From Nannocystis bainbridge (lineage in GTDB: Bacteria > Myxococcota_A > Polyangia > Nannocystales > Nannocystaceae), in assembly GCF_028368995.1 (NCBI RefSeq), contig NZ_JAQNDL010000002.1, positions 609,724 through 673,723 of the forward strand: a stretch of DNA of 64,000 nt, given 5' to 3'. The notes under the pieces are model-generated. The model saw only the letters and a list, made by a program, of their open reading frames with translations. It was not told the origin of the DNA and did not search any database. The translations under genes and the position numbers were made by a program. Shown piece after piece: positions 3,231 to 62,990 of this stretch. Positions within the stretch are counted from its first letter, which is position 1. Each line of letters begins with the position of its first letter.

Positions 3231-3399
3231 GGTGATTCTCCTGGGGGGTGACCCGTGGGTGCGGGTCGGATTGCGGGGGCAAGAGTCCTATTTGCGTCCT
3301 CGACCTGCAACACCTCGTGCGCCGACGATCTGCGCGGGATCATGCGCCAGGGCGCGTGAGCGCCCGTTGCGGGCGAGCGGCGACAGGTCCGGCCTGGAG

Positions 3400-3720
3400 A
3401 CAGAGATGTCTCTCGGGACATGTCGATGAAACGCGTTCCAGGGACAGGTGACCGGGCTCCGAGAAGGACGTGTCTCTCGGGACATGTCGAAGCATCACGG
3501 GTCTGGGACAGGTGACCGGGCCGGAGAACCATGTGTCTCTCGGGACAGGTCGAAGGCGCGCGCTCCGGGGCCGGGCGGCGCCGAGAGCGGCATGTCCTCG
3601 GGGACATGTCGATGGAGCGCGGTCCGGGGACAGGTGGCCGTCCGGAGCGGCGGGATGGCTCCCGGGACATGTCAAACGCGACATGCCCCGAGGGACAGGT
3701 CTAGCCGCGCTGACGCAGGG
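3400..3720. repeat. Tandem array of REP-like GGGACATGTC / GGGACAGGTG hairpin repeats with 63-66 bp higher-order unit (3 copies)
   Basis: Repeated blocks gtctctcgggacatgtcga[a/t]g ... gggacaggtgaccgggc[c/t]..gagaa ... gtg seen three times, plus further single copies up to 3710. Confidence 0.75.
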
Positions 3721-4621
3721 CACCGCGCAGCTTGACGAGGGTGTCGTCGAGGCGCGAGGCGGGCACGCTGACGCGCGTCGGCATGCCGCCGCCGAGGCCG
3801 AGCAGAGTGACGAAATCGAGGCCGCTCTCGAAGCCGGCGGCGATGTTGAGGGTCTGGCCGTCGATGACCACGGCGATGGTGGCGCGCTGCTGGCCGAGCA
3901 GCAGCAGCTCGGTCTTGTCGAACGGGCGCGGGTTCGCGGGCACGCGCACGAGCGCGACGCCGTCCTCGACGACGTAGGCGCGGGCGAGCGCGGCGGCCTC
4001 GGCGGCCATGGCGTCGAAGTCGGCGGCGGCGGCGGCGATCGCCTCCTGCTCGGCGCCGCGCGGGCGACCGGCGACCAGCCAGCGCACGATCTTGATCAGG
4101 AGGACGGTGTCCTCGTAGTGGGCGCGCAGGGCCTTGTCGACGAGGGCGCCGATCGGGCCGACTTCGCCGGTGCGGGTGTCGACGGCGCGGGCGTCGGCGT
4201 CGGCGCCGGGGTAGGGCTCGACGCCGCCGAGCAGCCACTTGGCGGCGGAGTAGAGGCCGTCGAGGTCGAAGTGGGCGACGATGGTGTCGACCGGACCTGT
4301 CTCCTGGACCATCTGCGGCGTGATGATCTCGGGGCAGGCGCCGTGCTCGGCCTTGGTGTGGAGCACGAAGCGAGCGTCACCGCGGAACTGCGCGTGGCGC
4401 TCGTGATCGTGGTGATCGACCCACCGGGCCAGGCGCGGGCCGAGGCCGTGGAGGAACTTGCCGGTGATCTTCTCGAAGCCGCTGCCGATGCCCTCGGCCG
4501 CAAAGGCGACGTCGAGCACGACGACGCGGCCGCGCAGGCTGGCCGGCTTCGGCAGCCGCCGCGGGCTGGCGAACACCAGGTCGATCGCGGCGGCGTGGGC
4601 GAGGTCGGGCGTGGCCTTCAA
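3701..4621 (-). CDS. Hypothetical protein (contains VDHHDHERH motif; possible DHH-like phosphoesterase, uncertain)
   Basis: 306-aa ORF with balanced composition. 4-nt overlap with the downstream TPR gene suggests an operon. Confidence 0.4.
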   Translation of the reverse strand: MKATPDLAHAAAIDLVFASPRRLPKPASLRGRVVVLDVAFAAEGIGSGFEKITGKFLHGLGPRLARWVDHHDHERHAQFRGDARFVLHTKAEHGACPEIITPQMVQETGPVDTIVAHFDLDGLYSAAKWLLGGVEPYPGADADARAVDTRTGEVGPIGALVDKALRAHYEDTVLLIKIVRWLVAGRPRGAEQEAIAAAAADFDAMAAEAAALARAYVVEDGVALVRVPANPRPFDKTELLLLGQQRATIAVVIDGQTLNIAAGFESGLDFVTLLGLGGGMPTRVSVPASRLDDTLVKLRGALRQRG

Positions 4622-8494: not shown

Positions 8495-8625
8495 GCGGCG
8501 GGATGTCTTCGAGGGCATGTCCCGATGGACATGTCTTGGAGAGAATGTCCTCGGGGACATGTCGATGTGAGCATGTCATTCGGGACATGTTCTTGAGGGC
8601 GTGATACGCAGCACGGCCGTGGTTT
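8495..8625. repeat. REP-like CATGTCC/GGACATG repeat cluster
   Basis: gggatgtcttcgagggcatgtcccgatggacatgtcttggagagaatgtcctcggggacatgtcgatgtgagcatgtcattcgggacatgttc. Confidence 0.65.
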
Positions 8626-8646: not shown

Positions 8647-9504
8647 ATGCCTGAAGACAGGGTGGCGATGCGAGTGAGGGATTGTCCCAGGCGGCGCGGA
8701 CGCGGAGCGGTGGTGGCCCTGGCGCTGCTGGGTTGCCCGGCGGGCGAGGTCGCGGAGCTCGAGGGGGAGGAGCCGGCCTGCGCGCGGCCGGGCGGGCGCG
8801 GGTTCGCATTCTCGGGGGCGCCCGAGACGTTCGTGGTGCCCGAGTGCGTGACGAGGCTGACGGTCGAGCTGTGGGGCGCGCAGGGCGGGCCGAGCCGCTG
8901 CGGGACCGACGAGGGGTCTGCTCTGCCGGACCTGCAGATGGACGGCGGACGCGGCGGCTGGCTGCGCGCCGAGGTGCCGGTCCGCCCGGGCGAGGTGGTG
9001 CTGGTGCGCGTGGGCGGGCGCGGCGGCCTCGACGGCGCGCCGGGCTGGAACGGCGGCGGGCGCGGGGGCCGGTGGGCCGGCGGGGGCGGCGGTGGATCGG
9101 ACTTCCGGATCGGCGGGGCGAGCTTGATCGATCGCGCGCTGGTGGCCGGCGGCGGAGGCGGCGGTTCGTGCGGCTTTCCGGACCACGGGGCGGGCGGCGC
9201 CGGCGGCGGGCTGGTGGGCGAGGACGGGACTGTCGGCGAGGCGCCCTGGATCGCGGGCGGTGGCGGCCGACAGCTCGCGGGCGGCGAGGCAGGTTCAGCG
9301 CCGGGGCAGGCGGGGGTGTTCGGGCTCGGCGGCGGGGCAGCCCGCTACCACGTGGCCGGCGGCGGGGGCGGCTGGTACGGGGGTGGCGGGGCGTACGGGG
9401 CGGGCGGCGGCGGCGGTTCGTCGCACGCGAGCGGGGAGGCGAGCGCGGTGGAGAGCGAGGCGGGGGCGCGCGGCGGAGACGGGGCGGCGCAGATCTACTG
9501 GTGA
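8647..9504 (+). CDS. Glycine-rich secreted protein/lipoprotein (Gly_rich-like family); start possibly ATG at 8671
   Basis: Signal peptide with LLGC lipobox, an ordered N-terminal region (FVVPECVTRLTVELWGAQGG), then GGGGG-rich repeats. Composition differs from antisense artefacts (Tyr/Trp/Phe present). Confidence 0.45.
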   Translation: MPEDRVAMRVRDCPRRRGRGAVVALALLGCPAGEVAELEGEEPACARPGGRGFAFSGAPETFVVPECVTRLTVELWGAQGGPSRCGTDEGSALPDLQMDGGRGGWLRAEVPVRPGEVVLVRVGGRGGLDGAPGWNGGGRGGRWAGGGGGGSDFRIGGASLIDRALVAGGGGGGSCGFPDHGAGGAGGGLVGEDGTVGEAPWIAGGGGRQLAGGEAGSAPGQAGVFGLGGGAARYHVAGGGGGWYGGGGAYGAGGGGGSSHASGEASAVESEAGARGGDGAAQIYW

Positions 9505-9524: not shown

Positions 9525-9725
9525 TCGAGGCGTGGGGGCGATGGAGATGTCCGAGAGGACATGTCGAGATCGGCGAGCGCATCGGGTCATCGCGGTGGAT
9601 GATGGTGTCTTTGGGGACATGTCCATGGGGACATGTTTCGAGCGGGTGGGTCGGGGCGCGTCGCCGAGGATGTGTTTCGGACATGTCTCGAAGGACATGA
9701 CAAAAGCTCGCGGGTGACGGGGGAC
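9525..9725. repeat. REP-like CATGTCC/GGACATG repeat cluster
   Basis: gagatgtccgagaggacatgtcgag ... ggggacatgtccatggggacatgtttcgag ... gtttcggacatgtctcgaaggacatgac. Confidence 0.65.
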
Positions 9726-14944: not shown

Positions 14945-14984
14945 AGAGATGGCCCGAAGGACAGGTCGAGGGCGCGGACGCGGC

Positions 14985-15115
14985 GGGGAGTCCGGAGCTC
15001 GCCGTAAGAGCGGGGCATGTCCTCGTGGGCATGTCCTCGCGGGCATGCCTTGAAGGACATGTCTTCATAGACATGCCGAAACGGGCATGTCCCCGGGGAC
15101 ATGCTCAGCGGCGCA
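14985..15115. repeat. REP-like repeat cluster (GCATGTCC-TCGY-GGGCATG iterated about 6x with a ~14-bp period)
   Basis: ggggcatgtcctcgtgggcatgtcctcgcgggcatgccttgaaggacatgtcttcatagacatgccgaaacgggcatgtccccggggacatgctc. Confidence 0.7.
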
Positions 15116-16559: not shown

Positions 16560-16730
16560 GCGATCGCCCGCGGGGCGTGCTGGTCGAAGGGACAGGTGGC
16601 GCGGGGCTCGAAGGCGCGGGTGATGCCGGGTTCGAGCCGCGTCGATGTCATCTGGCCGAAGAGACAGGTCCGCGGCGGGCGAGCGATGGATGTCCGAAGG
16701 GACAGGTCGTCGATAAGCCGCGGCCTCGCG
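16560..16730. repeat. REP-like repeat cluster, GGGACAGGTS variant
   Basis: gaagggacaggtggcg ... gaagagacaggtccgcg ... gaagggacaggtcgtcg. Confidence 0.6.
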
Positions 16731-18248: not shown

Positions 18249-18385
18249 TGGCGGATGCCGCCGCCCGCGCAGAGCGGGCGGCGGCTGCTCTGCAAGAGCC
18301 TGCTCGTCGGTAGGCCGAAATCCTGCGAGGGAGCGCCCAAGAGCGAGTTCAAGGAAGGCTGCTCGTCGCTACCGAAACGTCCTTC

Positions 18386-19726
18386 TTGAAGGTGCGAGAC
18401 GGGCGGCGGTGCCTGGCCGCCAGGATGCCGACGTGGTACGGAAGAGCGGTGCAGATCCGCGACATCGAGCTCACGAACTTCCGCGGCTTCGAGACGCTCA
18501 AGTGTGAGCTCAACCCCGAGTGCACACTGTTCGTGGGGATCAACGGATCTGGCAAGACCAGTGTACTTGATGCGATCGCGGCGCTGCTATCGATGTGGAT
18601 GCGTGCTGTGGCCGGTCGATTGGATGGGGGGAGGCTCGAGCCCGACGACCGGCGGCTAGTCCGGCGGATCATCAAGGGGGTCCCGAGCCTTGAGGTTGCG
18701 GGGCCCGTGGTCGTCCATGGAACCATCTCTGGAAGAGAGGGTGAATCGCACCTTGAACGCGTGTCGTTGGACGGCACAGATTTTGTAAACAGTTCCCTCC
18801 TGTCGGAAGGGTATCGCACTGTCGAATCGGTCAGTGCAGGAGCGCAGGAAGAACTGCCGCTCTTCGCTTACTACTGCACCGGTAGACTGTGGCAAACGAG
18901 CGATGTGCAGGGAAACCTGAGGTTGCAAAGCGTGTTCGATGGCTACCGTGATTGTCTGCGCGCGGCTGTTAACCATCAGCTTCTTCAGAGCTGGATGTCG
19001 TGGCGGGAATCCGTCCGCCTGCAGGAGATCGGTCTCGCCGTGGAAAGCGGCCAGGAAATCAGGTCGGTACGAGAACCGCTGCTCGAGGTAGTTGCAAACG
19101 CAGTTACCGATTGTGTGGAAGGGGCAAAGCGGTTCTACTATTCCGTAAACCACGAGGAGCTTCGGGTCGACTTCAAGGACGGGCGAACGCTGCCCTTCCG
19201 CATGTTGTCGGACGGGTACCGCAACTTGCTGGCGCTCGTCGGCGACATCGCCTGGCGCGCCGCGCGGCTCAATCCTCATCACGGGGTAGATGCGGCCAAG
19301 GAGACCGCAGGCGTGGTGCTGATCGACGAGCTCGATCTTCACCTGCACCCGAGCTGGCAGCGGAGCGTGCTGCCGAACTTGCGGCGGGTCTTCCCGAAGA
19401 TCCAGTTCATCGCCACGACCCACTCGCCGCAAGTGCTGTCCACGGCCGAGCCGGCGTGGATCCGCGTGCTCCATCCGGACGGCAGCGTGGGCACCGTCGA
19501 GCATACGCACGGACGTGACTCCAACAGCCTGCTCGAGGACGTGTTTGGCGTCCCCGAGCGGCCCGTCGAGACGCGCGACGACATCCGGCGGCTGTTCGAC
19601 CTCATCGATCGCGGCGCGTTCGACGAGGCCGAAGCGTTGCGGGAGAAGTTGCAGGAGGACCTCGGTCCGGACGACCCTGACATCGTGCGGGCTCGAACCG
19701 CGATCGATCTCGAGAGGAATCTATGA
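18386..19726 (+). CDS. AAA/ABC-type ATPase, PtuA-like (Septu-type defence ATPase); true start possibly ATG 18425
   Basis: RecF/SMC-like Walker A (FVGINGSGKTSVLDAI), Walker B/D-loop (VVLIDELDLHLHP), H-loop (IATTHSP). GC content about 55-62%, well below flanks. Confidence 0.65.
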   Translation: MKVRDGRRCLAARMPTWYGRAVQIRDIELTNFRGFETLKCELNPECTLFVGINGSGKTSVLDAIAALLSMWMRAVAGRLDGGRLEPDDRRLVRRIIKGVPSLEVAGPVVVHGTISGREGESHLERVSLDGTDFVNSSLLSEGYRTVESVSAGAQEELPLFAYYCTGRLWQTSDVQGNLRLQSVFDGYRDCLRAAVNHQLLQSWMSWRESVRLQEIGLAVESGQEIRSVREPLLEVVANAVTDCVEGAKRFYYSVNHEELRVDFKDGRTLPFRMLSDGYRNLLALVGDIAWRAARLNPHHGVDAAKETAGVVLIDELDLHLHPSWQRSVLPNLRRVFPKIQFIATTHSPQVLSTAEPAWIRVLHPDGSVGTVEHTHGRDSNSLLEDVFGVPERPVETRDDIRRLFDLIDRGAFDEAEALREKLQEDLGPDDPDIVRARTAIDLERNL

Positions 19727-20349
19727 TCTCGGCCCCAAAGGGGAGCGCGCCGTCCTGTCTCACCACGCTGGCCGCCACGCCGGGGGCCGACTGGGACAGC
19801 GTGTACGGCGACCAGAAGCAATCGATGCGGGATGCGCTCGTGCGTGACCAGGGGTCGCTCTGCGCGTACTGTCAGCGGCGAGTGAAGGCGACCGAGGCCG
19901 ACATGCGCATCGATCACTGGCACCCGCGCGAGCGCGGCGGAGGTGTGTTCCAGTGGAACAACCTCGTCGGCTCGTGCGCCGATCGTGTGACCTGCGACGC
20001 GGCGAAGCAGGAGACCCGGCTGTTCCTTCATCCTGCGCGCGGGCTGGGGCCCGATCCGCGGCAGTTCCTGCGCTACACCGGCTCGGGCGAGGTGGTCGCC
20101 GACGACGAGCGGGCGCGTGCCGACACGCGTACGCTCGGTCTCAACGACGATCGCCTGGTCCGGGCCCGGCGGGCGGTGCTGGACGCCCTCCGCGGATGGA
20201 TCGCGCGGCGCGAGCGGTCAACGGCAGAGCTCCAGCGACAGATCGTGCTCCTGGAGTCGCCTGCAGGCGAGGCCCCGGAGTATGCGGCGACTCGTGCCTA
20301 CTATTTCCGCAAATGGTCGAGGGCGCGGGGAGCAGCCGTGGAGCGGTGA
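19723..20349 (+). CDS. HNH endonuclease, PtuB-like partner of the ATPase
   Basis: CAYCQRR ... DHWHPRERGGG ... WNNLVGSC = Cys-rich HNH/His-Me finger. ATGA overlap with upstream ATPase. Confidence 0.6.
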   Translation: MISAPKGSAPSCLTTLAATPGADWDSVYGDQKQSMRDALVRDQGSLCAYCQRRVKATEADMRIDHWHPRERGGGVFQWNNLVGSCADRVTCDAAKQETRLFLHPARGLGPDPRQFLRYTGSGEVVADDERARADTRTLGLNDDRLVRARRAVLDALRGWIARRERSTAELQRQIVLLESPAGEAPEYAATRAYYFRKWSRARGAAVER

Positions 20350-20674
20350 CAGCATTCGCTCGTAGCAAGGCGAGCAGACGCGGCTGCGCTCCACCGCGGG
20401 GAGCCGTGAGACCGCCGACGATCTGCGTTACGCCGATGCGCCCGCAATTGCTGCGAGACAATTTCGCTGCGCTCGTCTCCATGCCAGCACGTCGTCCCGA
20501 CTTGGCGAGCGTGTGGCGAGCTGGAGGATCTGCAGTGGATCCCCGACGCCTGCGACCGTGGTCGTGCCGAGGAGATCGCGTCTTGCGTCTTGGTCAGGCG
20601 CGGCGCTCGTTCCGCCTGCCACTCTTGTAAACTGGCCTGGGGGGCCGTAGCCGCGGGTCTGGCTCGGGGCGTTG

Positions 20675-20699
20675 GGCGAAAACGCGCGCTGTTTTCGCC
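20675..20699. promoter_or_regulatory. Inverted repeat GGCGAAAAC-N7-GTTTTCGCC upstream of the O-methyltransferase gene (operator or terminator candidate)
   Basis: Perfect 9-bp inverted arms about 55 bp upstream of ATG 20754. Confidence 0.3.
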
Positions 20700-20753
20700 G
20701 GACTGTGCCACTCGTCGGCGGGGCCGGGGTGAGCGAAAGTCTGGGCCGCCGGC

Positions 20754-24666: not shown

Positions 24667-24780
24667 CGAAAATGTCTCATTGGACATGTTTGTTTGAACA
24701 TGTCCTTATGCGTCTGTCGTCGAATCGTCGAGGACATGTTCATAAGAACATGTCCGATTGAACATGCGTCAGGGCGGGCG
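24660..24780. repeat. REP-like repeat cluster (AT-richer variant)
   Basis: tcattggacatgtttgtttgaacatgtccttatg ... gaggacatgttcataagaacatgtccgattgaacatgcg. Confidence 0.6.
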
Positions 24781-26249: not shown

Positions 26250-26350
26250 AGAATGACCTCAAGGACATGTCCTGAAGGGAATGTCCGTGGTCGCTCGCTC
26301 GCTCGCTCGCGGTCATGAACGCTCGGGACATGTTCGAGAGGACATGTCCC
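26250..26350. repeat. REP-like repeat cluster
   Basis: aaggacatgtcctgaagggaatgtccgtgg ... gggacatgttcgagaggacatgtcccgtg. Confidence 0.6.
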
Positions 26351-28894: not shown

Positions 28895-28945
28895 GCACAG
28901 CCATCAATGGCTTTTTGGACATGTCGACGAGGACATGTCCCGGAG
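28895..28945. repeat. REP-like repeat pair
   Basis: tttttggacatgtcgacgaggacatgtcccggaggtc. Confidence 0.55.
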
Positions 28946-28946
28946 G

Positions 28947-29972
<1,026 letters not shown>

Positions 29973-45334: not shown

Positions 45335-45660
45335 ATGGCGGGAGGGACATGGGCTTTGGGACATGTCGGTCGGGCCAGAGGCGGGATGTCAGGGGGGACA
45401 TGTTGGACCTGGTGAAGCGGGCGCGTCATGCTCCGGCACGAGGCATGTGGCGCGAGAGACATGTCCCGATCCACATGCTCGATTCGACATGTCCTGATCG
45501 ACATTCCTGAATGGACATGTTGGGCCTGGTGGAGCGTGCGCGGCCATGCGCTGTTACGAGCCATGCAGCGCGAGAGATGTCCCGATTGACATGCTCTATT
45601 CGACATGTCTGGATCGACATGTCTCGATAGACATGTCTCCGCGGACATGTCCCGCGGCGC
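45335..45660. repeat. Large REP-like repeat array (about 20 CATG-core units)
   Basis: gggacatgggctttgggacatgtcggtcgggc ... gggggacatgttggacctgg ... gagacatgtcccgatccacatgctcgattcgacatgtcctgatcgacattcctgaatggacatgttggg ... gacatgctctattcgacatgtctggatcgacatgtctcgatagacatgtctccgcggacatgtcccgcgg. Confidence 0.75.
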
Positions 45661-49478: not shown

Positions 49479-50132
49479 TCACGAGCCGGTCGCGGCCGGG
49501 TCGCCGTCGTCGCGGTCGAGGGCGCGGCGGATGCTGGCGGCCCAGCCCTCGAGGTCGGTGAGGGTGGCCTGGAGCTCGGCCGGCGAGCGGGCCAGCTCGG
49601 CGAGGCGGGCCCGCAGCTGGTCCTTGCCGAGCCGCAGGCGCCCGCGCACGGTGCCCTCGGGCACGCTGAGCAGCTCGCTGATCTCGCGCCCCGAGAGGCC
49701 CTCGAAGATGTTGAGCTCGAGCACGATTTGCTGGTCGAGCGGGATCTCTCGCAGCGCCAGCACCAGCAATTGGGCCTCGCGCCGGCGCATGACGATCGAG
49801 CTCATCGACGACGGCGACAGGTCCTTGACGCACAGCGCCCCGAAGTCGAGCGCCTCGCCCTGGCGCTTGTGCTTGGTGCGGATGTAGAGCCGGAGGACGT
49901 TGAGGGCGATGGCGAAGACGAACCGCTTGAAGCTGGTCTCGCCGCGGAAGCCGTCCTTCGCCTTGGTACACTCGAGGAAGGTCTGACTGACGAGGTCGGC
50001 GGCGTCGTGCTCGCTCGAGACCTTGTTGCGGAAGAAGCGGGCGATCGCGCCGAAGTGTCGCTTCACCAGCCGCTCCCCCGCGCCGCGGTCGCCGGCCCGC
50101 CAGGCCGAGAGCAGTTCCCAGTCGGGGTCCAT
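49479..50132 (-). CDS. ECF-type RNA polymerase sigma factor (sigma-70 regions 2 and 4)
   Basis: Region 2 (..DLVSQTFLECTKAKDGFRGETSFKRFVFAIALNVLRLYIR..) and region 4 HTH (..LSGREISELLSVPEGTVRGRL..). Confidence 0.75.
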   Translation of the reverse strand: MDPDWELLSAWRAGDRGAGERLVKRHFGAIARFFRNKVSSEHDAADLVSQTFLECTKAKDGFRGETSFKRFVFAIALNVLRLYIRTKHKRQGEALDFGALCVKDLSPSSMSSIVMRRREAQLLVLALREIPLDQQIVLELNIFEGLSGREISELLSVPEGTVRGRLRLGKDQLRARLAELARSPAELQATLTDLEGWAASIRRALDRDDGDPAATGS

Positions 50133-50206: not shown

Positions 50207-53200
50207 ATGTCGACGCCGCCCGACACGCCGCCCGACACGAAGGCCGCCCGCGGTGCAGGTGCGGGCACGTGGGCCGACGTCGACGTCCATCGTCTCCATG
50301 CGCGCGTGATGGGCCGGCTGTTCGGCGAGCCGGCCGCGCCCACCATGATCGGCAGGTTCCATGTCGAGCGCCGGCTGGGGTCGGGGGCCATGGGCGTCGT
50401 CTATGCGGCCGTCGACGCCCAGCTCAATCGCCGGGTCGCCATCAAGCTGCTGCACCCGCACCTGCAGGGCGACGAGCAAGGCCGCGCTCGACTGCTGCGC
50501 GAGGCCCGGGCGATGGCCCGCCTCGAGCACGATCACGTGGTGCGGATCTACGAGGTCGGCGCGTGGGGCGACCAGATCTACATCGCCATGGAGCTGATCG
50601 AGGGGGTGACCCTCGACGCGTGGCTGCGCGAGCGCCCGCGGGCCTGGCAGGCGGTGCTGACGGTGTACCTGCAAGCGGGGCGGGCGCTGGCGGCGGCCCA
50701 CCACGCGGGGCTGCTGCACCGCGACTTCAAGCCCGAGAACGTGCTCGTCGACCACCGCGACCGCGCCCGCGTCCTCGACTTCGGGCTGACGTGCGCGCTC
50801 GATGCCGGCGAGGCGCTCGACGACGAGCTGATGCCGCTGACCCGCACCGGCAGCATCCTCGGCACGCCGGCGTACATGGCCCCCGAGCAGCAGCGCACCG
50901 GCAACGCGGAGCCGCGCTCCGACCAATTCAGCTTCTGCGTGGCGCTGTTCGAAGGTTTGTTCGGTCTGCGGCCGTTCGGCTCGGTTCCGCGCTTCGGTCA
51001 GGTCGAGATCGCGCCCATTCCGCGGGAAAGTCGCGTCCCTTTGCGCATCCGCCGCGCGATCTTTCGCGGCCTGTCCGAAAAGCCAGATGCGCGCTGGCCG
51101 GGCATGGACGACCTGCTGGCGGCCTTGCAGGCGCCGCGCCGGTTCGTCGGCGGGCCCGAGGACGGGCGGGCGCGGCCGTGGCTGCTGGCGGGCGGAGTGA
51201 CGCTCGCGGCCGCGGGGCTGGTGGCGCTCGGCGTGTCGCTGGCGCAGCCGGAGACGGGCGATGCGGTGGCGGAGGGGCCAGAGCCGGGGCCGCTCGCGAG
51301 CGCGCCCGACGAGGCGCAGGCCGACGCGCTGGCGACCGAGCGCGCGGCCGCCGAACGCCAGGCCCACGCGCTGCGGGTCCGCGACGCCGCGCTGTCGCTG
51401 CTGCCCCGCGATCCGACGACGGCGGCGCTGCTGCTGCGCGAGCTCGACGATCCCGGAGCGCTGGCCCAGCGGGTGCTGGCGGAGCCGATCAGCGCGGCGA
51501 TCCTGCGCGGCCACGACGGGCCGGTGGTGGCGGTGCGCTGGATCGAGGCTGTCCCGGGGGACAGGGGCGCGGTGCCGGGGGCGGCGAGCGAGGCTGTCCC
51601 GAGGGACAGGTCGCATGGCGCGCCGGCAGGGTCCGCGAGCGCGGCGGTGCTGGCGAGCGGTTCTGTCCGTGCGGGCAGCGGCGGGGCTGTCCTCCGGGAC
51701 AGGTCGGGCGGCGAGGCGGCGCTCCTTGGGAGCGGGTCGATGCCGCACGACATGGCTGTCCTCGGGGACAGGTCACGAGTGAGCGGTACGGCTGGCCTTT
51801 CGGACAGTTCACGCGCGCGTGAGCCGATCGAAAAGACTGTCCTTCGGGACATGTCGCGAGCGAGCGGAGCGGCGGTGCTGGCGAGCGGCGTCGGCTCACC
51901 TGTCCCGGGGGACAGTTTGGCGTCGCCTGTCCCGCAGGACAGCTCGAGAACACCGCCGGCGGAGCTGCGCGGCGCGGTCGAGACCGTCGACGCCTCCGGG
52001 CACGTGCGTCGGTTCGCGATCGCCGGCGGGCCGCCGACCCCCGGCGCGGGCAGCTTCGGCGCCGACCCGCGCCGCGGCCCTGCGGGCGAGGAGCTGCGGG
52101 TCGACGCTCGCGGCGGCGTGTCGCTGGTCGCCGGCGAGCGCGTGACGGCCCTGCGCGGCGTCGTCGGCCCGCTCGCGGCGGTCGCCTGGAGCCCCGACGG
52201 CCAGGAAATCGCCGCGGCCGGCCCGCGCGGCGAAGTGTGGCGGATCGCCGGGGGGCGCCCGATCGCCGTCGGCGAGCGCGGCGCGGCCGTCGGCGCGCTG
52301 GCGTGGGACCGCGGCGGGCGGCACCTCGCGATCGGCCGCGACGACGGCGGGGTCGAGGTGTGGCGTATCGACGGCGCGGCGCGGCGGATAGCGGCGGTGG
52401 TCGGCGACGGCGGCGTCACCGGCCTGGCTCTCGGGACAGGTTGGTTCGCCAGCGGCAGCGACGACGGCAGCGCGCGGGTGTGGCGGATCGGCGGGGTCGG
52501 GCGGCCCTTCGTGCTGCGTGGTCACACCGGGCCGGTTCGGGCGCTGGCGTTCGCGCCCGGCGGTGTCCGCCTGATCACCGGCAGCGACGACGGCAGCGCG
52601 CGGGTGTGGCGGCTCAGCCCGGCGGCGGTGCGCGAGCACGACCTCGGCGCGGTCGTGCACGCGCTCGCCTGGAGCCCCGACGGCACCGCGCTGGCGGCCG
52701 CCGGGGCGCGCAGCGTGTGGCTGCTGCCGACCGACGGCGGGCCGGTGCGCCGGCGCGACCACGCCGGCACCGCGCTGGCGCTGGCCTGGCGCGGCGACGG
52801 TCAGGAGCTGGCGGTCGCCGACGACGGCGGCGCGATCACGTGGATCCCCCGCGGCGAGGGCGAGCCGCGGCGGGCCAGCGTCGACCGCCGCCCGCTACCC
52901 GCGCTGGCCTGGGATCCTCGGTCCTCGCGCCTGGCCGCCGGCGGCAGCGACGGCGCGTTCTTCATCTGGCCTTCAGGACATGACTTCAAGGACATGGCCG
53001 ATCCGACCCGCGCGCCGCAGGGCCGCGGGGCCATCGCCGCGCTGGCCTGGTCGCCGGTCGACGATCGACTGGCGGCCGTCACCGCGTCCGGCTACGTGCT
53101 CGTGCGCACCGAGCAGACCGTGTTCATCGAGCTCGGCCAGCCGCTGCGCGGGCTGGCGTGGAGCCCCGCCGGCGACGCCCTGGCGATCGTCGGCGACAAT

Positions 53201-57177: not shown

Positions 57178-60048
57178 GTGGGAGCCCGCTCGCCCGACGA
57201 CGTGTGCTCCGGGCCCTCCGGCCCGGACCTGCTCGCGACCACCGACGCGAAGTCGCCGGCGCTGGACGTCACCGCCCGCGCCGGCGCCAGCCCGATCGAG
57301 AAGACGGTCCTTGCAGCACCTGTCCGCAAGGACAGCACGCCGCACGTGAGCGCCGGCGTCAGCCTGCGCGCCGCGATCGCGCTCGACGACTCGCTGCTCC
57401 GGCAGTCGCGGCGGATCGGTCGCTACGCGATCCTGAGCGAGCTCGGCGAGGGCGGCATGGGCGTGGTCCTGTCGGGCTACGACGAGGTGCTCGAGCGCCG
57501 CGTCGCCATCAAGGTGCTGCGCTCGCACAACCGCCAGGACGGGCGCCTGCAGGCCCGCCTGCTGCGCGAGGCGCAGGCGCTGGCCCGCCTGTCGCACCCC
57601 AACGTGGTCCAGGTCTACGAGGCCGGGGCGCTCGGCGACGAGCTGTTCATCGCCATGGAGTTCGTCCGCGGCGTCACGCTCTCGGCGTGGCTGGCCGACC
57701 GCGCGCGCACGCAGCAGGAGATCCTCGCGGTGTTCGCCGAGGCCGGGCGCGGGCTGGCGGCGGCCCACCGCGTCGGCCTCACGCACCGCGACTTCAAGCC
57801 CGGCAACGTGCTCGTCGACCTCGAAGGCCGCGTGCGCGTGGTCGATTTCGGCCTGGCCGCGCTCGCCGAGCAGGCCGAGCGGCCCACCAGCGAGGAGCTG
57901 GCCGGCGTCGGCGTCGAGCGCACCGGCGTGCTCGCCGGCACGCCGGCGTACATGGCCCCCGAGCAGTGGCTCGGCGAGCAGGTCGACGCCCGCACCGATC
58001 AGTTCAGCTTCTGCGTCGCGCTGTGGGAGGCGCTGGTCGGCGCCCGGCCGTTCACCGGCGACAGCGTCGACGAGCTGCGCGACCAGGTCCTGGTCGCCGA
58101 TCTGCCCGAGCGCGTGCACGTCGGCCCGCGGATCGGCAAGCGGCTCTACCGGGTGCTCGCGCGGGGCCTCGCGCGGGTCCCCGACGGCCGCTATCCCAGC
58201 ATGGACGCGCTGCTGGCCGACCTCGCCGGCCCGCAGGTGCGCGCCCGCCATGCGGTGCTCGGGCTCGGGCTCGGCGCCGTGATCGGCCTGGCCGCGGCCG
58301 CGTGGAGCTTCCAGGACGAGGGCCGCTGCCTCGGCGCCGAGGCCCGGCTCGTCGGCGTGTGGGACCCGGCCCGCCGCGACGCCGCCGCCGACGCCTTCGA
58401 GGCCGCCGGGGTCGGGTTCGCCGACGAGGCGTGGACGCAGGTCGCCGGCCGCCTCGACGCCCGCGCCGACGCGATCGTGGCCATGCACCGCCACGCCTGC
58501 GAGGCCCACGCCCGCGGCGAGCAGTCCGAGCACCTGCTCGACCTGCGCATGGCCTGTCTTTCGCGCCATGTCCATGAGGTCAGGGCCGTCACCGACCTGC
58601 TGGTGGCCGCCGACGCCGGCGTGGTCGAGCGGGCCGTCGACGCCGTGGCCGCGCTGCCGCCGATCGAGCGCTGCGCCGACGTCGCGCTGCTGACCGCCGA
58701 GGTCGCGCCGCCGGCCGATCCGGCCACCGCGCTGGCCGTCGACAACGTCCGCCGCGCGCTCGCCAACGTCGCCGCGCTCGAGCACACCGGCCGCTACGAG
58801 GCCGGCCGGCTCGGCGCCGAGCAGGCCGTCGCCGCCGCCGAGGCCACCGCCTACGCCCCGGCCGTCGCCGAGGCCCAGCTCGCGCGCGGCCGCTTGCTCG
58901 CGCTCGTGCAGCGCGACGGCGAGGCCGAGACCAGCCTGCGCGCCGCCTTCACCACCGCCACCGCCAGCCACCAGGACGCGGTCGCCCGCGACGCCGCCGC
59001 CGCGCTCGTCGAGACCCTCAACACCCTCGGCCGCCTCGACCACGCCCAGGTCTGGCTCGAGATCGCCGCCGCCGCCCAGGCCCGCGCGCCCGACGACGGC
59101 GCCGCCGCTTTCCTCGATCTCGCGCGCAGCAAGCTGCTGTGGTCGCTCGGGCGCTACGCCGAGTCCGAGGCCGCCATCGAGCGCAGCGTCGCCGCCTACG
59201 ACGCCCTCCACGGCCCCGACAACCCCGCCACCGCGCGCGCGCGCCAGTGGTTCGGCACCGCGCTGTGGGCCCGCCAGGAGTTCGCTCGCTCCAAGGCTGT
59301 CCTTCCGGACAGCCGCGCCCGCCTCGAGCGCCTCTACGGCCCCGAGCACCCCGAGGTCGCCGCCGCCCTGCGCTTCGAGGGCAACCTCTACTTCGCGCTC
59401 ACCGACTTCGACGCCGCCCTCGCGACCTGGCGCCGCGGCCTCGACATCATCCTCCGCACCCGCGGCGAGGACGACCCGCTGGTGGTCGTGCTGCAGGGCA
59501 ACATCGCCGCCGCGCTGGCCCGCGCGCGCCGCCCCGTCGACGCCGTCGCCGCCTTCGAGGCCGTCGTGCGCACGCTCGAGCGCCGCCACGGCCCCGACCA
59601 CATCGAGCTGTGCACCCAGCTCGACAACCTCGGCGCGTCCTACCTCGAGGCCGGCCAGCTCGGCCCCTCGCGCCTGGCCATCGACCGCTCGCTGGCGATC
59701 CGCCGCCGCGTCCTCGGCGAGGGCCACGCCGAGGTCGCGCGCTCGCTGCTCGGCCTCGGCGAGTGGGGCCTGCACGCCCGCGACTACGCCACCGCCATCC
59801 CCGCGTTCGAGCGCGCCCTGGCGATCCGCGCCGGCACCGACGTGCACGCCCTCCTGCGCGGCCGCGCCGAGTACGGCCTGGCCCGCGCGCTGTGGCTGTC
59901 GGACCGCGACCGCGGCCGCGCCCGCGCCCTCATCGATCAGGCCGTCGCCACCTTCACCTCGCTCGGCCAGGCCGGCTCGCTCGACCTGAACGAGGCGACG
60001 GCCTGGCGCACCGAGAACGTGCCGCCCGCGGTCGCGCCGAAGCGCTGA
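57178..60048 (+). CDS. Serine/threonine protein kinase with C-terminal TPR repeats (start uncertain, possibly near 57300)
   Basis: Hanks kinase subdomains (GEGGMGVV, AIKVL, HRDFKPGN, DFG, APEQ) followed by many TPR-like helices. Confidence 0.75.
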   Translation: MGARSPDDVCSGPSGPDLLATTDAKSPALDVTARAGASPIEKTVLAAPVRKDSTPHVSAGVSLRAAIALDDSLLRQSRRIGRYAILSELGEGGMGVVLSGYDEVLERRVAIKVLRSHNRQDGRLQARLLREAQALARLSHPNVVQVYEAGALGDELFIAMEFVRGVTLSAWLADRARTQQEILAVFAEAGRGLAAAHRVGLTHRDFKPGNVLVDLEGRVRVVDFGLAALAEQAERPTSEELAGVGVERTGVLAGTPAYMAPEQWLGEQVDARTDQFSFCVALWEALVGARPFTGDSVDELRDQVLVADLPERVHVGPRIGKRLYRVLARGLARVPDGRYPSMDALLADLAGPQVRARHAVLGLGLGAVIGLAAAAWSFQDEGRCLGAEARLVGVWDPARRDAAADAFEAAGVGFADEAWTQVAGRLDARADAIVAMHRHACEAHARGEQSEHLLDLRMACLSRHVHEVRAVTDLLVAADAGVVERAVDAVAALPPIERCADVALLTAEVAPPADPATALAVDNVRRALANVAALEHTGRYEAGRLGAEQAVAAAEATAYAPAVAEAQLARGRLLALVQRDGEAETSLRAAFTTATASHQDAVARDAAAALVETLNTLGRLDHAQVWLEIAAAAQARAPDDGAAAFLDLARSKLLWSLGRYAESEAAIERSVAAYDALHGPDNPATARARQWFGTALWARQEFARSKAVLPDSRARLERLYGPEHPEVAAALRFEGNLYFALTDFDAALATWRRGLDIILRTRGEDDPLVVVLQGNIAAALARARRPVDAVAAFEAVVRTLERRHGPDHIELCTQLDNLGASYLEAGQLGPSRLAIDRSLAIRRRVLGEGHAEVARSLLGLGEWGLHARDYATAIPAFERALAIRAGTDVHALLRGRAEYGLARALWLSDRDRGRARALIDQAVATFTSLGQAGSLDLNEATAWRTENVPPAVAPKR

Positions 60049-60894: not shown

Positions 60895-61010
60895 GATCTA
60901 TCGATCGTCGTCTTGGAGACATGTACCGAAGGTCATGCCCCAAAGGTCATGCCTGTATGGACATGCTCGATCGAGCATGCCTCGTCGACCATGTCGTCTC
61001 AGCCGAGCTC
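60895..61010. repeat. REP-like repeat cluster (CATG/CCATG variant)
   Basis: ggagacatgtaccgaaggtcatgccccaaaggtcatgcctgtatggacatgctcgatcgagcatgcctcgtcgaccatgtcgtc. Confidence 0.55.
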
Positions 61011-62864
61011 GCCCCAGCGGACGATCGTGCCGTCCTCCGAGCTGCTCCACAGCGCCCCGTCGGCCCACGTCAGCGCCCGCACCGCGTCGGTGTGAAAGCG
61101 CAGCGTCGCCACCGTCGCCCCGTCGGCGACCCGGTGCTGCACGATCGGCCCGGCGGGGTGGCCGACGAACAGCCAGCGCCCCGCGTCGTCGAAGCAGAGG
61201 CAGCGGTGGAATTCCGGCTCGCCGTCCAGCTCGGCCGCCAGTTCGACGGTCGTCCCCGCGGCCACGTCGACGAGCCGCGGGCGATCGACGCCGATCACGC
61301 CCACGTGCGCGCCGTCGCGGCTGATCGCCACGCTCAAGGCGTTCGTCGGCAGCGTCAGCGACTGCAGCGGCTTGCCCTTGGCAAGACCCACCACCACCAG
61401 CGCGGCGCCGACGGCCACCGCCGCCGCGGAGTCGCACAGGGCGATGCGAGGGAAGCGGCCGGGCAACTTGAGGTTCTTGGCCCATTTCGTCGCTCCGAAC
61501 GCGCGCCACTGGGCCTGTGCCGTCGGCTCCGTCATCCGCGACGCCGGGTAGTTGGACGAAGTCACGCCCCAGGTCCGGCCGTCGGGCGCCAGCGCCAGCT
61601 CGCCGGCGCGGCGCTGGACCTCGAGCAACTCGCCCGGTTGGCCGGCGGCGTCGAACTGGGTCACCTTCAGCGGCTGGAGCGGGTAGGACTCGTGGAACAC
61701 CAGCAGGCGCTGCCCGTCGGCGGTCGTGGCGATGTCGTGGACCTCGCGCACGTCCAGCAGCTTCCGCGCGCCGCTGCCGAGCTCGAGCTTCACCACCGAC
61801 GGCCTCGAGTTGGCCGGCTGACACGACTGCAGCGTCAACCTCTCGCCGTGGACGAACAGTCGCTGCGCGCCGGGGCTGTAGCCGGTGATCGTAGCGAGCG
61901 GCTGCTCCGGCCGATCGACGCGCCAGATCCTCACCGTCGCGGTCGCGTGATCGATGGCCGCGACGTGGCCCGCGCTTGCGGCCGCAGCCTGGCCGGCCCA
62001 GCCCGACATCTGCCCGGTGGCGCTCTCCAGCTCGACGCTGAAGACCACCCGCTGCTCGGCGACGTCCCACACCTGCACCGCGCCCTGGATGGCGTGGAGG
62101 GCGATCCGGCTGCGGTCGTACGCGATCGACCCGCCGTCGGCTCGGCGGGGCAGGTCGCCCTGCCGCACGATCGCGCCGTCGACGAACGCGACCCGCTCGC
62201 CGCTCTTACCCACCATCCCGCGGGCGTCGGCGAAGAACGGCTTGAAGGCGCCGAAGAACGGCGCGTCGTCGAGCGCCTCGAGCCGCCCGTCGGGATGGAC
62301 CGCCACCATCGCGTCGCCCCGCAGGTACACCACCCCGTCGGGACGCACCGCCAGCCACAGCGCCTCCGCGACCTCCGGCGGCAGCGCCACCTCGCGGAGG
62401 GGCGCCCCCGTCGCCGCGTCGACGAAGCACAGCGCCGGAGACGGGCCCTCGCGCCGCCACACCAGCTGCGCGCCGTCGGGTGAGACGGCGCCGCAGAAGT
62501 GCTCGCCGAATGGTTCGCTCGCCAGCAGCTCGACCACGCGTCCGGTCGCCGGCCACACCCGCGCGACGACGCGACCGCTCGCGCCGTGGGCCCACGCCAG
62601 CACCGATTCGCCGTCAGGGTGCGCGACCATCCACGCCACGCCGACCACAGCGACGCTCGCCCGCGGCGGTGACGGTGCCGACGGATCGTGCAGCGTGATC
62701 CCGTGGCTGCCGCCGACCACCAGCGACCCGTCGGCGAGGAACGCCAGCGCGTGCGGCTTGCCGGCGAAGATCCGCAGCGAAGGCGCGCGCGGGGCAGGGG
62801 GCAGGTGGACGATCGGGGCCGAGGGGAGCGGATTCCAGGTCATGACGGGCAGCGCAACCTCCAT
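60999..62864 (-). CDS. Beta-propeller (WD40/PQQ-like) repeat protein, hypothetical
   Basis: 621-aa coherent ORF with repeated ..DG..L..GS.DG.I.VW.. strands. Ends ..EDGTIVRWGELG. Confidence 0.5.
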   Translation of the reverse strand: MEVALPVMTWNPLPSAPIVHLPPAPRAPSLRIFAGKPHALAFLADGSLVVGGSHGITLHDPSAPSPPRASVAVVGVAWMVAHPDGESVLAWAHGASGRVVARVWPATGRVVELLASEPFGEHFCGAVSPDGAQLVWRREGPSPALCFVDAATGAPLREVALPPEVAEALWLAVRPDGVVYLRGDAMVAVHPDGRLEALDDAPFFGAFKPFFADARGMVGKSGERVAFVDGAIVRQGDLPRRADGGSIAYDRSRIALHAIQGAVQVWDVAEQRVVFSVELESATGQMSGWAGQAAAASAGHVAAIDHATATVRIWRVDRPEQPLATITGYSPGAQRLFVHGERLTLQSCQPANSRPSVVKLELGSGARKLLDVREVHDIATTADGQRLLVFHESYPLQPLKVTQFDAAGQPGELLEVQRRAGELALAPDGRTWGVTSSNYPASRMTEPTAQAQWRAFGATKWAKNLKLPGRFPRIALCDSAAAVAVGAALVVVGLAKGKPLQSLTLPTNALSVAISRDGAHVGVIGVDRPRLVDVAAGTTVELAAELDGEPEFHRCLCFDDAGRWLFVGHPAGPIVQHRVADGATVATLRFHTDAVRALTWADGALWSSSEDGTIVRWGELG

Positions 62865-62924
62865 AGCAGCGCGCGGGTCGCGTCCGCAAGCGCCCCCGAC
62901 GCGTGCCCCCTGATAGGAACGAAA

Positions 62925-62990
62925 GACAGGACGCGAGGGACATTCTCACGAGATGTCCCTTCAGACATGTCCCCAAGAACACCCGCTCAG
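62925..62990. repeat. REP-like repeat cluster
   Basis: gagggacattctcacgagatgtcccttcagacatgtccccaag. Confidence 0.55.

Follow-up and report, generated by a model that had tools for sequence, protein, structure and literature searches.

A probable in-frame tandem array of REP-like palindromes forming a predicted propeller loop in a Nannocystis Ser/Thr kinase

A 64,000-nucleotide stretch of the Nannocystis bainbridge genome (RefSeq assembly GCF_028368995.1, contig NZ_JAQNDL010000002.1, positions 609,724 to 673,723; hereafter the window) contains a Ser/Thr kinase gene whose product is interrupted by a segment rich in Gly, Ser, Arg, Asp, Ala and Val, referred to below as the linker or insert. We consider it likely that this segment is a translated, in-frame tandem array whose unit carries a clade-specific palindrome resembling repetitive extragenic palindromic (REP) elements, with the full form (C)GACATGTCC-N4-GGACATGTCG(A) and the core TGTCC-N4-GGACA. 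Protein sequence would thereby have arisen, in the large genome of a free-living bacterium, from a very small extragenic hairpin repeat, as a strain-variable loop of up to 200 residues in a kinase propeller blade. The gene was compared with syntenic orthologue loci from N. exedens (L001), three N. pusilla assemblies (L004, L005 and L006), a more divergent assembly labelled N. pusilla (L002), a metagenomic relative (L003) and a more distant relative (L108).

An earlier note on this DNA, made from the sequence alone, had reported at least eight copies of CTGTCC-N4-GGACAG in the linker, all read in frame, and this description holds: six exact and three one-mismatch copies lie between positions 51549 and 51942 (Table 1), all seven strings quoted there are present, and the linker peptides it gave are correct. 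Dinucleotide-preserving shuffles lead one to expect 0.02 exact copies in the whole 64-kb window. Every linker copy is read in the same phase of the open reading frame (ORF), xxT GTC CNN NNG GAC Axx, and the start-to-start spacings of the linker hairpins (45, 93, 69, 81, 63 and 27 nt) are all multiples of three. A [G/T]TC tail, claimed for the repeats as a whole, follows four of the nine copies (51594, 51687, 51756 and 51837) but not the other five.

The insert lies after ...GHDGPVVAVRW, inside the first blade of the propeller. Measured from AVRW to ETVDA, the stretch comprises 146 amino acids (aa) in the N. bainbridge window, 200 in N. exedens, 133, 142 and 171 in the three N. pusilla assemblies L004, L005 and L006, 41 in L002 and 5 in L003, which reads ...RFLETDVETVDAAG... 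at this place; the insert is likewise lacking in L108 and in more distant orthologues. The insert is thus a derived feature; among the orthologues compared it occurs in Nannocystis only, where its length differs between species and between strains. An AlphaFold2 model based on the orthologue alignment assigns a predicted local distance difference test score (pLDDT) of about 23-26 to residues 448-587 and of about 87 to the flanking strands (428-434/440-446 and 590-595/600-604), so that the insert, predicted to be disordered, would form a loop joining two successive strands within blade one and not an inter-domain linker. The earlier placement between kinase domain and propeller was thus right in setting the segment after the kinase domain, but the actual site lies inside the first propeller blade. 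With the frame kept and the insert in a predicted loop of a confidently modelled propeller, the host fold would be respected. The checks proposed beforehand came out as anticipated: the segment is missing from the syntenic L003 and L108, neither of which belongs to the cultured Nannocystis species, its length ranges from 41 to 200 aa among the five other Nannocystis genomes with the frame always kept, and it is modelled as a low-confidence loop. No distant relative was found to share an identical linker, the contrary outcome named in advance.

That the open frame instead spans two genes, a kinase and a propeller, with an intergenic REP array between them that stays open as a by-product of 73% G+C, is so improbable that we give it hardly any weight. 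Codon-position G+C is indeed flat in 51545-51950 (.72/.67/.79, vs.80/.52/.92 upstream), and chance alone keeps many frames of this genome open over long ORFs. Yet the frame is kept through six different insert lengths in six Nannocystis genomes, the other two plus-strand frames are closed inside the segment (by ORFs ending at 51782 and 51822), and the strands flanking the insert belong to one blade and are contiguous in L003 and in distant orthologues.

The six Nannocystis linkers contain 44 copies at up to one mismatch, all 44 in the same phase, and the repeat is a DNA-level object, not a peptide object. Stem bases are invariant, while the 4-nt loops occur in more than 20 forms and the spacers and encoded residues drift. 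T is the last base of every codon preceding GTC, whether that codon specifies A, P, D, N, S or T, and A is the first base of every codon following GAC, whether it specifies R, M, T, S or K; with these two positions fixed, the stems force rare codons, GCT making up 17% of Ala codons in the linkers vs 2% elsewhere in the gene, and AGG 34% of Arg codons vs 1%. In the encoded peptide, V and D are the only fixed residues (V-x-x-D). In the three orthologous copies (the first and the last two), synonymous-type stem sites are all invariant, against 56% of the 4-fold sites elsewhere in the gene (rough P ~0.001). An ordinary low-complexity peptide repeat (AVPxDRS), kept for its residues and only incidentally palindromic, is a reading that we regard as largely refuted and very unlikely. 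V-[PLR]-x-D-[RMST]-S does recur, and inter-domain linkers are often repetitive, but the residues beside V and D vary freely while the stem-completing T and A never do; moreover, the rare codons are systematic, the same nucleotide motif, tail included, ranks as the genome's commonest intergenic repeat, and the segment is absent from functional orthologues.

Outside genes, the palindrome has the consensus (t)CGACATGTCC-N4-GGACATGTCG(a), a small palindromic unit of the REP kind; an intergenic copy at 3588-3612 forms a 10-bp stem at -16.1 kcal/mol. The core is matched 54 times in the window at up to one mismatch, and 10 exact copies fall in the 19% of the window not called coding. The family was sampled in about 0.5 Mb of Nannocystis DNA, comprising the window, the orthologue loci and 45 8-kb loci from a pattern scan. 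Here GACATGTC is the most over-represented 8-mer (57-fold), found 146 times in the 99 kb of intergenic sequence and 26 times in the 395 kb of coding sequence (CDS), which is a 22-fold higher density outside genes. Its density per kb is 3.9 in convergent, 1.6 in tandem and 0.35 in divergent spacers, and in tandem spacers 79% of the copies are closer to the stop codon of the upstream gene, with a median distance of 71 nt. Within this partly motif-selected sample, the family is therefore high-copy, mainly extragenic and situated 3' of ORFs, as REPs are. A scan of one genome per species returned at least 99 loci; among the matches listed, Nannocystis and Nannocystaceae have 2-6 copies per 8 kb and other taxa single copies.

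The linker and intergenic copies share a 3' extension, G-T-C-G(-A), that lies outside the search pattern. The frequencies of G, T, C and G are 79, 72, 77 and 69% in the linkers vs 83, 78, 76 and 59% in intergenic copies, the latter somewhat inflated because each copy was oriented for the best GTC tail. On the strength of this shared extension, the linker hairpins belong to the same family as the intergenic palindromes. The kinase linker thus has both marks of an intragenic element, being absent from orthologues and made of an element that also occurs in intergenic DNA. The positions flanking the core differ, with A...T (CATG) in intergenic copies vs C...G in CDS. L108, a distant relative that lacks the kinase insert, has between convergent genes (L108:6262-6283) a hairpin with a perfect 9-bp stem, GAGCTGTCC-GCAA-GGACAGCTC; the CTGTCC/GGACAG core is therefore older than the CATG-type expansion seen in Nannocystis. 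Among the distant loci without an insert, such hairpins occur after a gene and inside kinase CDS. A reading of L003 as lacking the family is rejected, as L003 offers only about 1.5 kb of intergenic DNA and L108, also without the insert, carries CTGTCC-N4-GGACAG hairpins. Two further readings, GACATGTC as a restriction site and the hairpins as terminators, were considered; the hairpins are not followed by a T-run.

Dense GACATGTC arrays, with hairpins of the type ATGTCC-N4-GGACAT, occupy most gene-3'-end spacers of the window (Table 1). The array at 3360-3700 consists of units of about 63 nt, each made of GGGACAGGTGACC and the TGTCTCTCGGGACATGTCGA hairpin, the family forming higher-order tandem units outside genes too. 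Two side observations concern the surrounding DNA. A glycine-rich ORF at 8680-9504, with GGGG and GxGG runs, is flanked on both sides by palindrome arrays and is left uncalled by a rule based on G+C at third codon positions (GC3). About 2.5 kb at 18250-20750 have a G+C of 0.66 vs 0.73 and no ORF passing the GC3 criterion, and could be foreign or non-coding DNA.

The tandem character of the linker is clearest in the sister species. The N. exedens linker contains five nearly identical 39-bp units, and the N. pusilla linkers are built of 36-bp units and of 78/84-bp units that join the hairpin to a REVVLASG module; in both species the units stand head to tail and measure a multiple of three, and copy number is polymorphic between the three N. 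pusilla strains. The L002 linker holds three hairpin copies in its 41 aa. In the window insert the same two-module unit is recognisable, in degenerate form, and the AAVLASG module of its 20-nt direct repeat (Table 1) is the 78/84-bp unit's second module, which reads REVVLASG in N. pusilla and N. exedens.

On the simplest reading, a single hairpin copy or a small number of them would have taken hold in this loop in the ancestor of Nannocystis, and may then have been amplified and contracted locally by replication slippage or by unequal recombination between the repeats. The survivors would be those changes that preserved the frame and avoided harmful residues, and such a filter could yield both the single phase (V-x-x-D) and the shift in CDS from ...CATGTCC/GGACATG... 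to ...GCTGTCC/GGACAGG.... The shift replaces His, Asn, Asp or Tyr by Ala, Pro, Ser or Thr, Met by Arg or Leu, and Cys by Gly, exchanges that may be favoured in an exposed translated loop, and the protein would tolerate the segment as a flexible loop. Because tandem duplication would by itself produce a single phase, independent colonisations are unnecessary. The conserved part of the family element has no stop codon in any frame, and the 28 other CDS copies are distributed over phases 2 : 1 : 0 as 15 : 11 : 2, the Cys-Pro frame being depleted. The earlier proposal that hairpin repeats had colonised ORFs as tolerated insertions is accordingly retained for the kinase linker, where a true length gain coincides with a match to the family, but not for its copies as independent colonisations, since these are locally amplified 36/39- and 78/84-bp units.

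Several points weigh against an array of inserted, tolerated palindromes. Tandem Repeats Finder, run on 51300-52200, reported none in the insert and two short rows upstream of it (51310-51354); the window array is too degenerate for this program, so that we infer tandem amplification from the sister species. The 8-kb loci were picked because the motif was present, which makes the sample partly motif-selected, and gene calls in the extra loci follow a crude GC3 rule. No transposase, target-site duplication or nucleotide-resolution pair of empty and filled sites was found that would speak for mobility. Since single copies elsewhere in CDS came without length change, the founding event in the kinase may have been an overwrite and not an insertion. 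Furthermore, strict stem conservation fits a selected or homogenised insert better than a tolerated, decaying one.

The hairpins might themselves be the selected object at the level of mRNA or DNA: they could bind a clade-specific protein, affect RNA stability, make ribosomes pause, or render the loop hypervariable by serving as a recombination site, with the peptide as a passenger; we judge this possible but unlikely. Consistent with it are the invariance of the stems across species while loops, spacers and residues change, the retention of disfavoured T-ending and A-starting codons and the conservation of all synonymous stem sites. Linker RNA also folds far better than shuffled sequences (z = -6.15), the copy at 59297 in a second kinase gene is nucleotide-identical in six genomes, GCT and CTT included, and the family lies at gene 3' ends, as functional RNA hairpins do. 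However, the stems never vary and thus show no covariation, and their conservation could equally stem from concerted evolution of tandem copies or from the stem-based way in which copies were found. Some CDS copies decay (the TFVRWDL site of the N. bainbridge HTTM gene; 37224), no partner protein was identified, and a search of the whole window against Rfam at gathering thresholds gave no match.

The single in-frame copies that the earlier note had listed in other genes do exist, in weaker form. Only the one at 57320 is exact; 37224 has one mismatch to CTGTCC-N4-GGACAG, 6206, 6233, 23506 and 36282 have two, and 37040-37080 consists of CTGTCC...GACAG with an 18-nt gap. A further exact copy, absent from that list, is the one at 59297, which reads GCT GTC CTT CCG GAC AGC, 18 nt identical in the six Nannocystis genomes with no indel. 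Comparison with orthologues covered the second kinase, HTTM and VWA genes, and none of the copies compared is an insertion: no length difference accompanies those of the second kinase, and orthologues have the same length at the HTTM sites (36282, 36718, 37040-37080 and 37224) and the VWA sites (6206 and 6233). Against a codon-permutation null, the exact core occurs twice in 51 kb of CDS where 0.02 are expected (P = 0.001), and the 16-mer at up to two mismatches occurs 19 times where 1.86 are expected. Many of these near-matches have, in addition, a GGT tail and contain rare codons (ACA GGT, for example), and VWA copy 6206 is identical to intergenic copy 16652 at 19 of 21 positions. The single CDS copies are thus family-like, about 10-fold over chance, and not chance matches.

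The HTTM orthologues bear on how such copies may arise. N. exedens has an exact canonical copy, ATGTCCGCTGGGACATGTCG (TYVRWDMS), where the window encodes TFVRWDL and the outgroups YARLDWH, all of equal length, and another HTTM orthologue (L107) has an exact canonical CTGTCCGCGGGGACATGTC (WLSAGTCL) at a place where other species show different codons of equal length. The exact 19-20-nt copies at L106:1673-1692 and L107:2489-2507, in orthologues of the window gene 35658-38081, stand in conserved, partly membrane-helix coding sequence with no indel, which suggests that the motif was overwritten onto the HTTM gene rather than inserted. It is possible, if short of probable, that the kinase array was seeded in the same manner, by length-neutral overwriting through ectopic gene conversion or template switching followed by slippage, with no mobile-element insertion. 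Every single CDS copy tested aligns to its orthologues without an indel, in HTTM orthologues the exact copies stand in place of unrelated codons with length unchanged, and both the excess of CDS near-matches and the resemblance of VWA copy 6206 to an intergenic copy point the same way; but only a handful of sites is involved, insertion with compensating deletion in variable loops could give the same picture, the mechanism is hypothetical for the Nannocystis clade, and the kinase segment is a true length gain. A bolder version, in which the palindrome (16-20 nt) is actively written onto the DNA of Nannocystis and its relatives, CDS included, without change of length and is kept at the nucleotide level for its action in DNA or RNA, the kinase loop being an expanded written copy, seems doubtful to us; the many copies in the genome could serve as donors for such writing, by ectopic conversion or template switching. 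The window gene 60999-62945 proved not to be orthologous to an epimerase gene of L001 and L002 that carries a CDS hairpin.

As a translated tandem array, the linker invites comparison with several known systems. Coding minisatellites or variable-number tandem repeats (VNTRs) in bacterial surface and sensor proteins have units that are multiples of three, vary between strains and encode disordered low-complexity product, with slipped-strand mispairing or unequal recombination as the likely motor. The Nannocystis linker resembles them in its multiple-of-three units, variable copy number and predicted disordered product; unlike them, its unit is built on an extragenic palindrome spread through the genome, and what is conserved is the stem at nucleotide level rather than the peptide. 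The DNA uptake sequences of Pasteurellaceae and Neisseriaceae (uptake signal sequences, USS, and DNA uptake sequences, DUS) are short over-represented motifs that form inverted pairs after genes and occupy preferred frames inside genes, without indels. The Nannocystis motif likewise occurs in inverted pairs after genes and, in preferred frames and without indels, within them, whereas its CDS density is 22-fold below the intergenic one, where uptake sequences have similar densities, and the motif is itself palindromic; to our knowledge, no link to competence is known for it.

Intragenic REPs provide a closer parallel. REPs lie mostly 3' of ORFs, in the spacers of convergent or unidirectional genes; a number of copies, clusters among them, are translated inside ORFs, with clusters encoding 43-82 aa in Thauera and R. 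conorii, and such inserts have been argued to occupy flexible linkers or loops (Di Nocera, De Gregorio and Rocco, 2013; PMC3733652). The Nannocystis palindrome shares the distribution at gene 3' ends and the translated cluster in a predicted loop. The tagged REP superfamilies are small palindromes of 20-40 bp with an unpaired GTAG or CGTC tag and an associated RAYT gene that the repeats flank (PMC3733652). No such tag was found within 12 nt on either side of 115 intergenic Nannocystis copies, where only the palindrome extension GAC/GTCGA is present, and no RAYT (Y1 transposase) gene was noticed in the window, no PF01797-type search of Nannocystis genomes having been made. The Nannocystis array also differs in being larger (up to 200 aa), in consisting of in-frame tandem units, in varying between strains and in having single copies that are length-neutral. 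The case works like that of in-frame palindromic elements and, because it has neither GTAG nor CGTC tag, stands outside the tagged REP superfamilies. Judged by title and abstract, no relevant literature description of a palindromic or REP family in Nannocystis or myxobacteria was found.

The Rickettsia palindromic elements (RPEs) are palindromes found in intergenic DNA and in frame in unrelated protein genes; they measure about 100-150 bp, occur as a single copy per site and encode a conserved peptide compatible with the host fold (Ogata et al., 2000, as summarised in PMC10969869 and PMC3184786). BRE and pneumococcal repeats are other in-frame palindromic elements in genes (PMC3184786). The Nannocystis palindrome resembles RPEs in being both intergenic and in frame, with a peptide that would be fold-compatible, and differs in being a 14-24-nt hairpin that is tandem-amplified, with neither the size nor the conserved peptide of an RPE; unlike the RPE hosts, with their reduced intracellular genome, Nannocystis is free-living, related Nannocystis species having complete-genome contigs of 11-13 Mb. 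The description of this mode of linker evolution as rare does not stand, as intragenic REPs and RPEs, including clusters of 43-82 aa, had already been described (PMC3733652, PMC10969869). Four features set the Nannocystis case apart, namely the very small element, the in-frame VNTR of up to 200 aa, its position inside a propeller blade and the length-neutral single copies.

On the practical level, gene callers and repeat maskers should expect the Nannocystis palindrome family inside real genes, flat codon statistics in such segments do not imply non-coding DNA, and the kinase linker would make a convenient strain-typing locus. If general, the length-neutral gain of exact copies in conserved genes would be a little-studied way in which selfish or regulatory DNA motifs alter proteins, and, were such copies indeed overwritten and then kept, a nucleic-acid signal would be shaping protein loops.

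Table 1. Coordinates of the kinase gene, its insert and members of the palindrome family in the window.
Feature	Position	Strand	Evidence or remark
Ser/Thr kinase gene, 1138 aa	50207..53623	+	ORF, Pfam, conserved synteny
Lineage-specific in-frame insert, Gly/Ser/Arg/Asp/Ala/Val-rich loop (predicted), ~aa 448-589	51548..51973	+	
Hairpin copy 1, CTGTCCCGGGGGACAG (EAVPGDRG)	51549..51564	+	exact match; orthologous copy in long-insert L001, L004, L005, L006
Hairpin copy 2, CTGTCCCGAGGGACAG with GTCG tail (EAVPRDRS)	51594..51609	+	exact match; RNA hairpin -10.8 kcal/mol
Direct repeat, 20 nt, exact, GCGGCGGTGCTGGCGAGCGG (AAVLASG), copies 1 and 2	51641..51660, 51869..51888	+	
Degenerate copy, CTGTCCGTGCGGGCAG (GSVRAGSG)	51663..51678	+	one-mismatch match
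Hairpin copy, CTGTCCTCCGGGACAG with GTCG tail (GAVLRDRS)	51687..51702	+	exact match
Hairpin copy, CTGTCCTCGGGGACAG with GTC tail (MAVLGDRS)	51756..51771	+	exact match, RNA folding
Degenerate copy, CTGGCCTTTCGGACAG (TAGLSDSS)	51792..51807	+	one-mismatch match
Copy with intergenic-type 3' arm, CTGTCCTTCGGGACATGTCG (KTVLRDMS)	51837..51852	+	one-mismatch match
Hairpin copy, CTGTCCCGGGGGACAG (SPVPGDSL)	51900..51915	+	exact match; orthologous copy in the four long-insert orthologues
Hairpin copy, CTGTCCCGCAGGACAG (SPVPQDSS)	51927..51942	+	exact match; orthologous copy in the four long-insert orthologues
Exact hairpin (APVRKDS), disordered N-terminus of second kinase	57320..57335	+	orthologues: one-mismatch CTGGCCGAAGGGACAG, no indel
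Exact hairpin, 8-bp stem (KAVLPDS), TPR region of second kinase	59297..59312	+	-16 kcal/mol
Intergenic array, GGACA[T/G]GTC hairpins at 3407..3700	3360-3700	.	period ~63 nt; adjoins 3' end of gene 3701-4621(-)
Further family arrays	2766-2822, 8518-8590, 9548-9700, 14949-15102, 16580-16705, 24673-24765		GACATGTC hairpins
Further family arrays	26254-26345, 28922-28950, 45387-45650, 62954-62982		GACATGTC hairpins

The kinase product is 100% identical to a Nannocystis bainbridge protein and has the order kinase domain, hydrophobic stretch, helical region and WD40 beta-propeller, Pfam placing Pkinase at residues 51-258 and the first WD40/propeller families near residue 654. The hydrophobic stretch after the kinase domain, WLLAGGVTLAAAGLVALGVSLA, looks like a membrane helix, as judged by eye and not by a predictor. 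In a later WD40 blade, at 52424-52439, Nannocystis has LALGTG, for which CTGGCTCTCGGGACAGGT codes, in place of the usual SPDG(R/Q)x loop; this further motif-like patch in a blade loop contains the rare codons GCT, ACA and GGT and is 2 aa shorter than in outgroups.

The gene neighbourhood is stable, an upstream extracytoplasmic function (ECF) sigma gene, a WG_beta_rep gene and RsgA being kept around the kinase in all orthologue loci. The ECF-type sigma gene (49479-50132, minus strand) divergently adjoins the kinase (plus strand) in every one of them, and this constant pairing suggests that the kinase may signal to the adjacent sigma factor. Several genes that are intact in the other genomes are split in L006 (N. 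pusilla Na p29, GCA_026626665.1), among them adh_short, WG_beta_rep and the kinase at its 3' end, probably by assembly frameshifts; the linker itself is in frame there.

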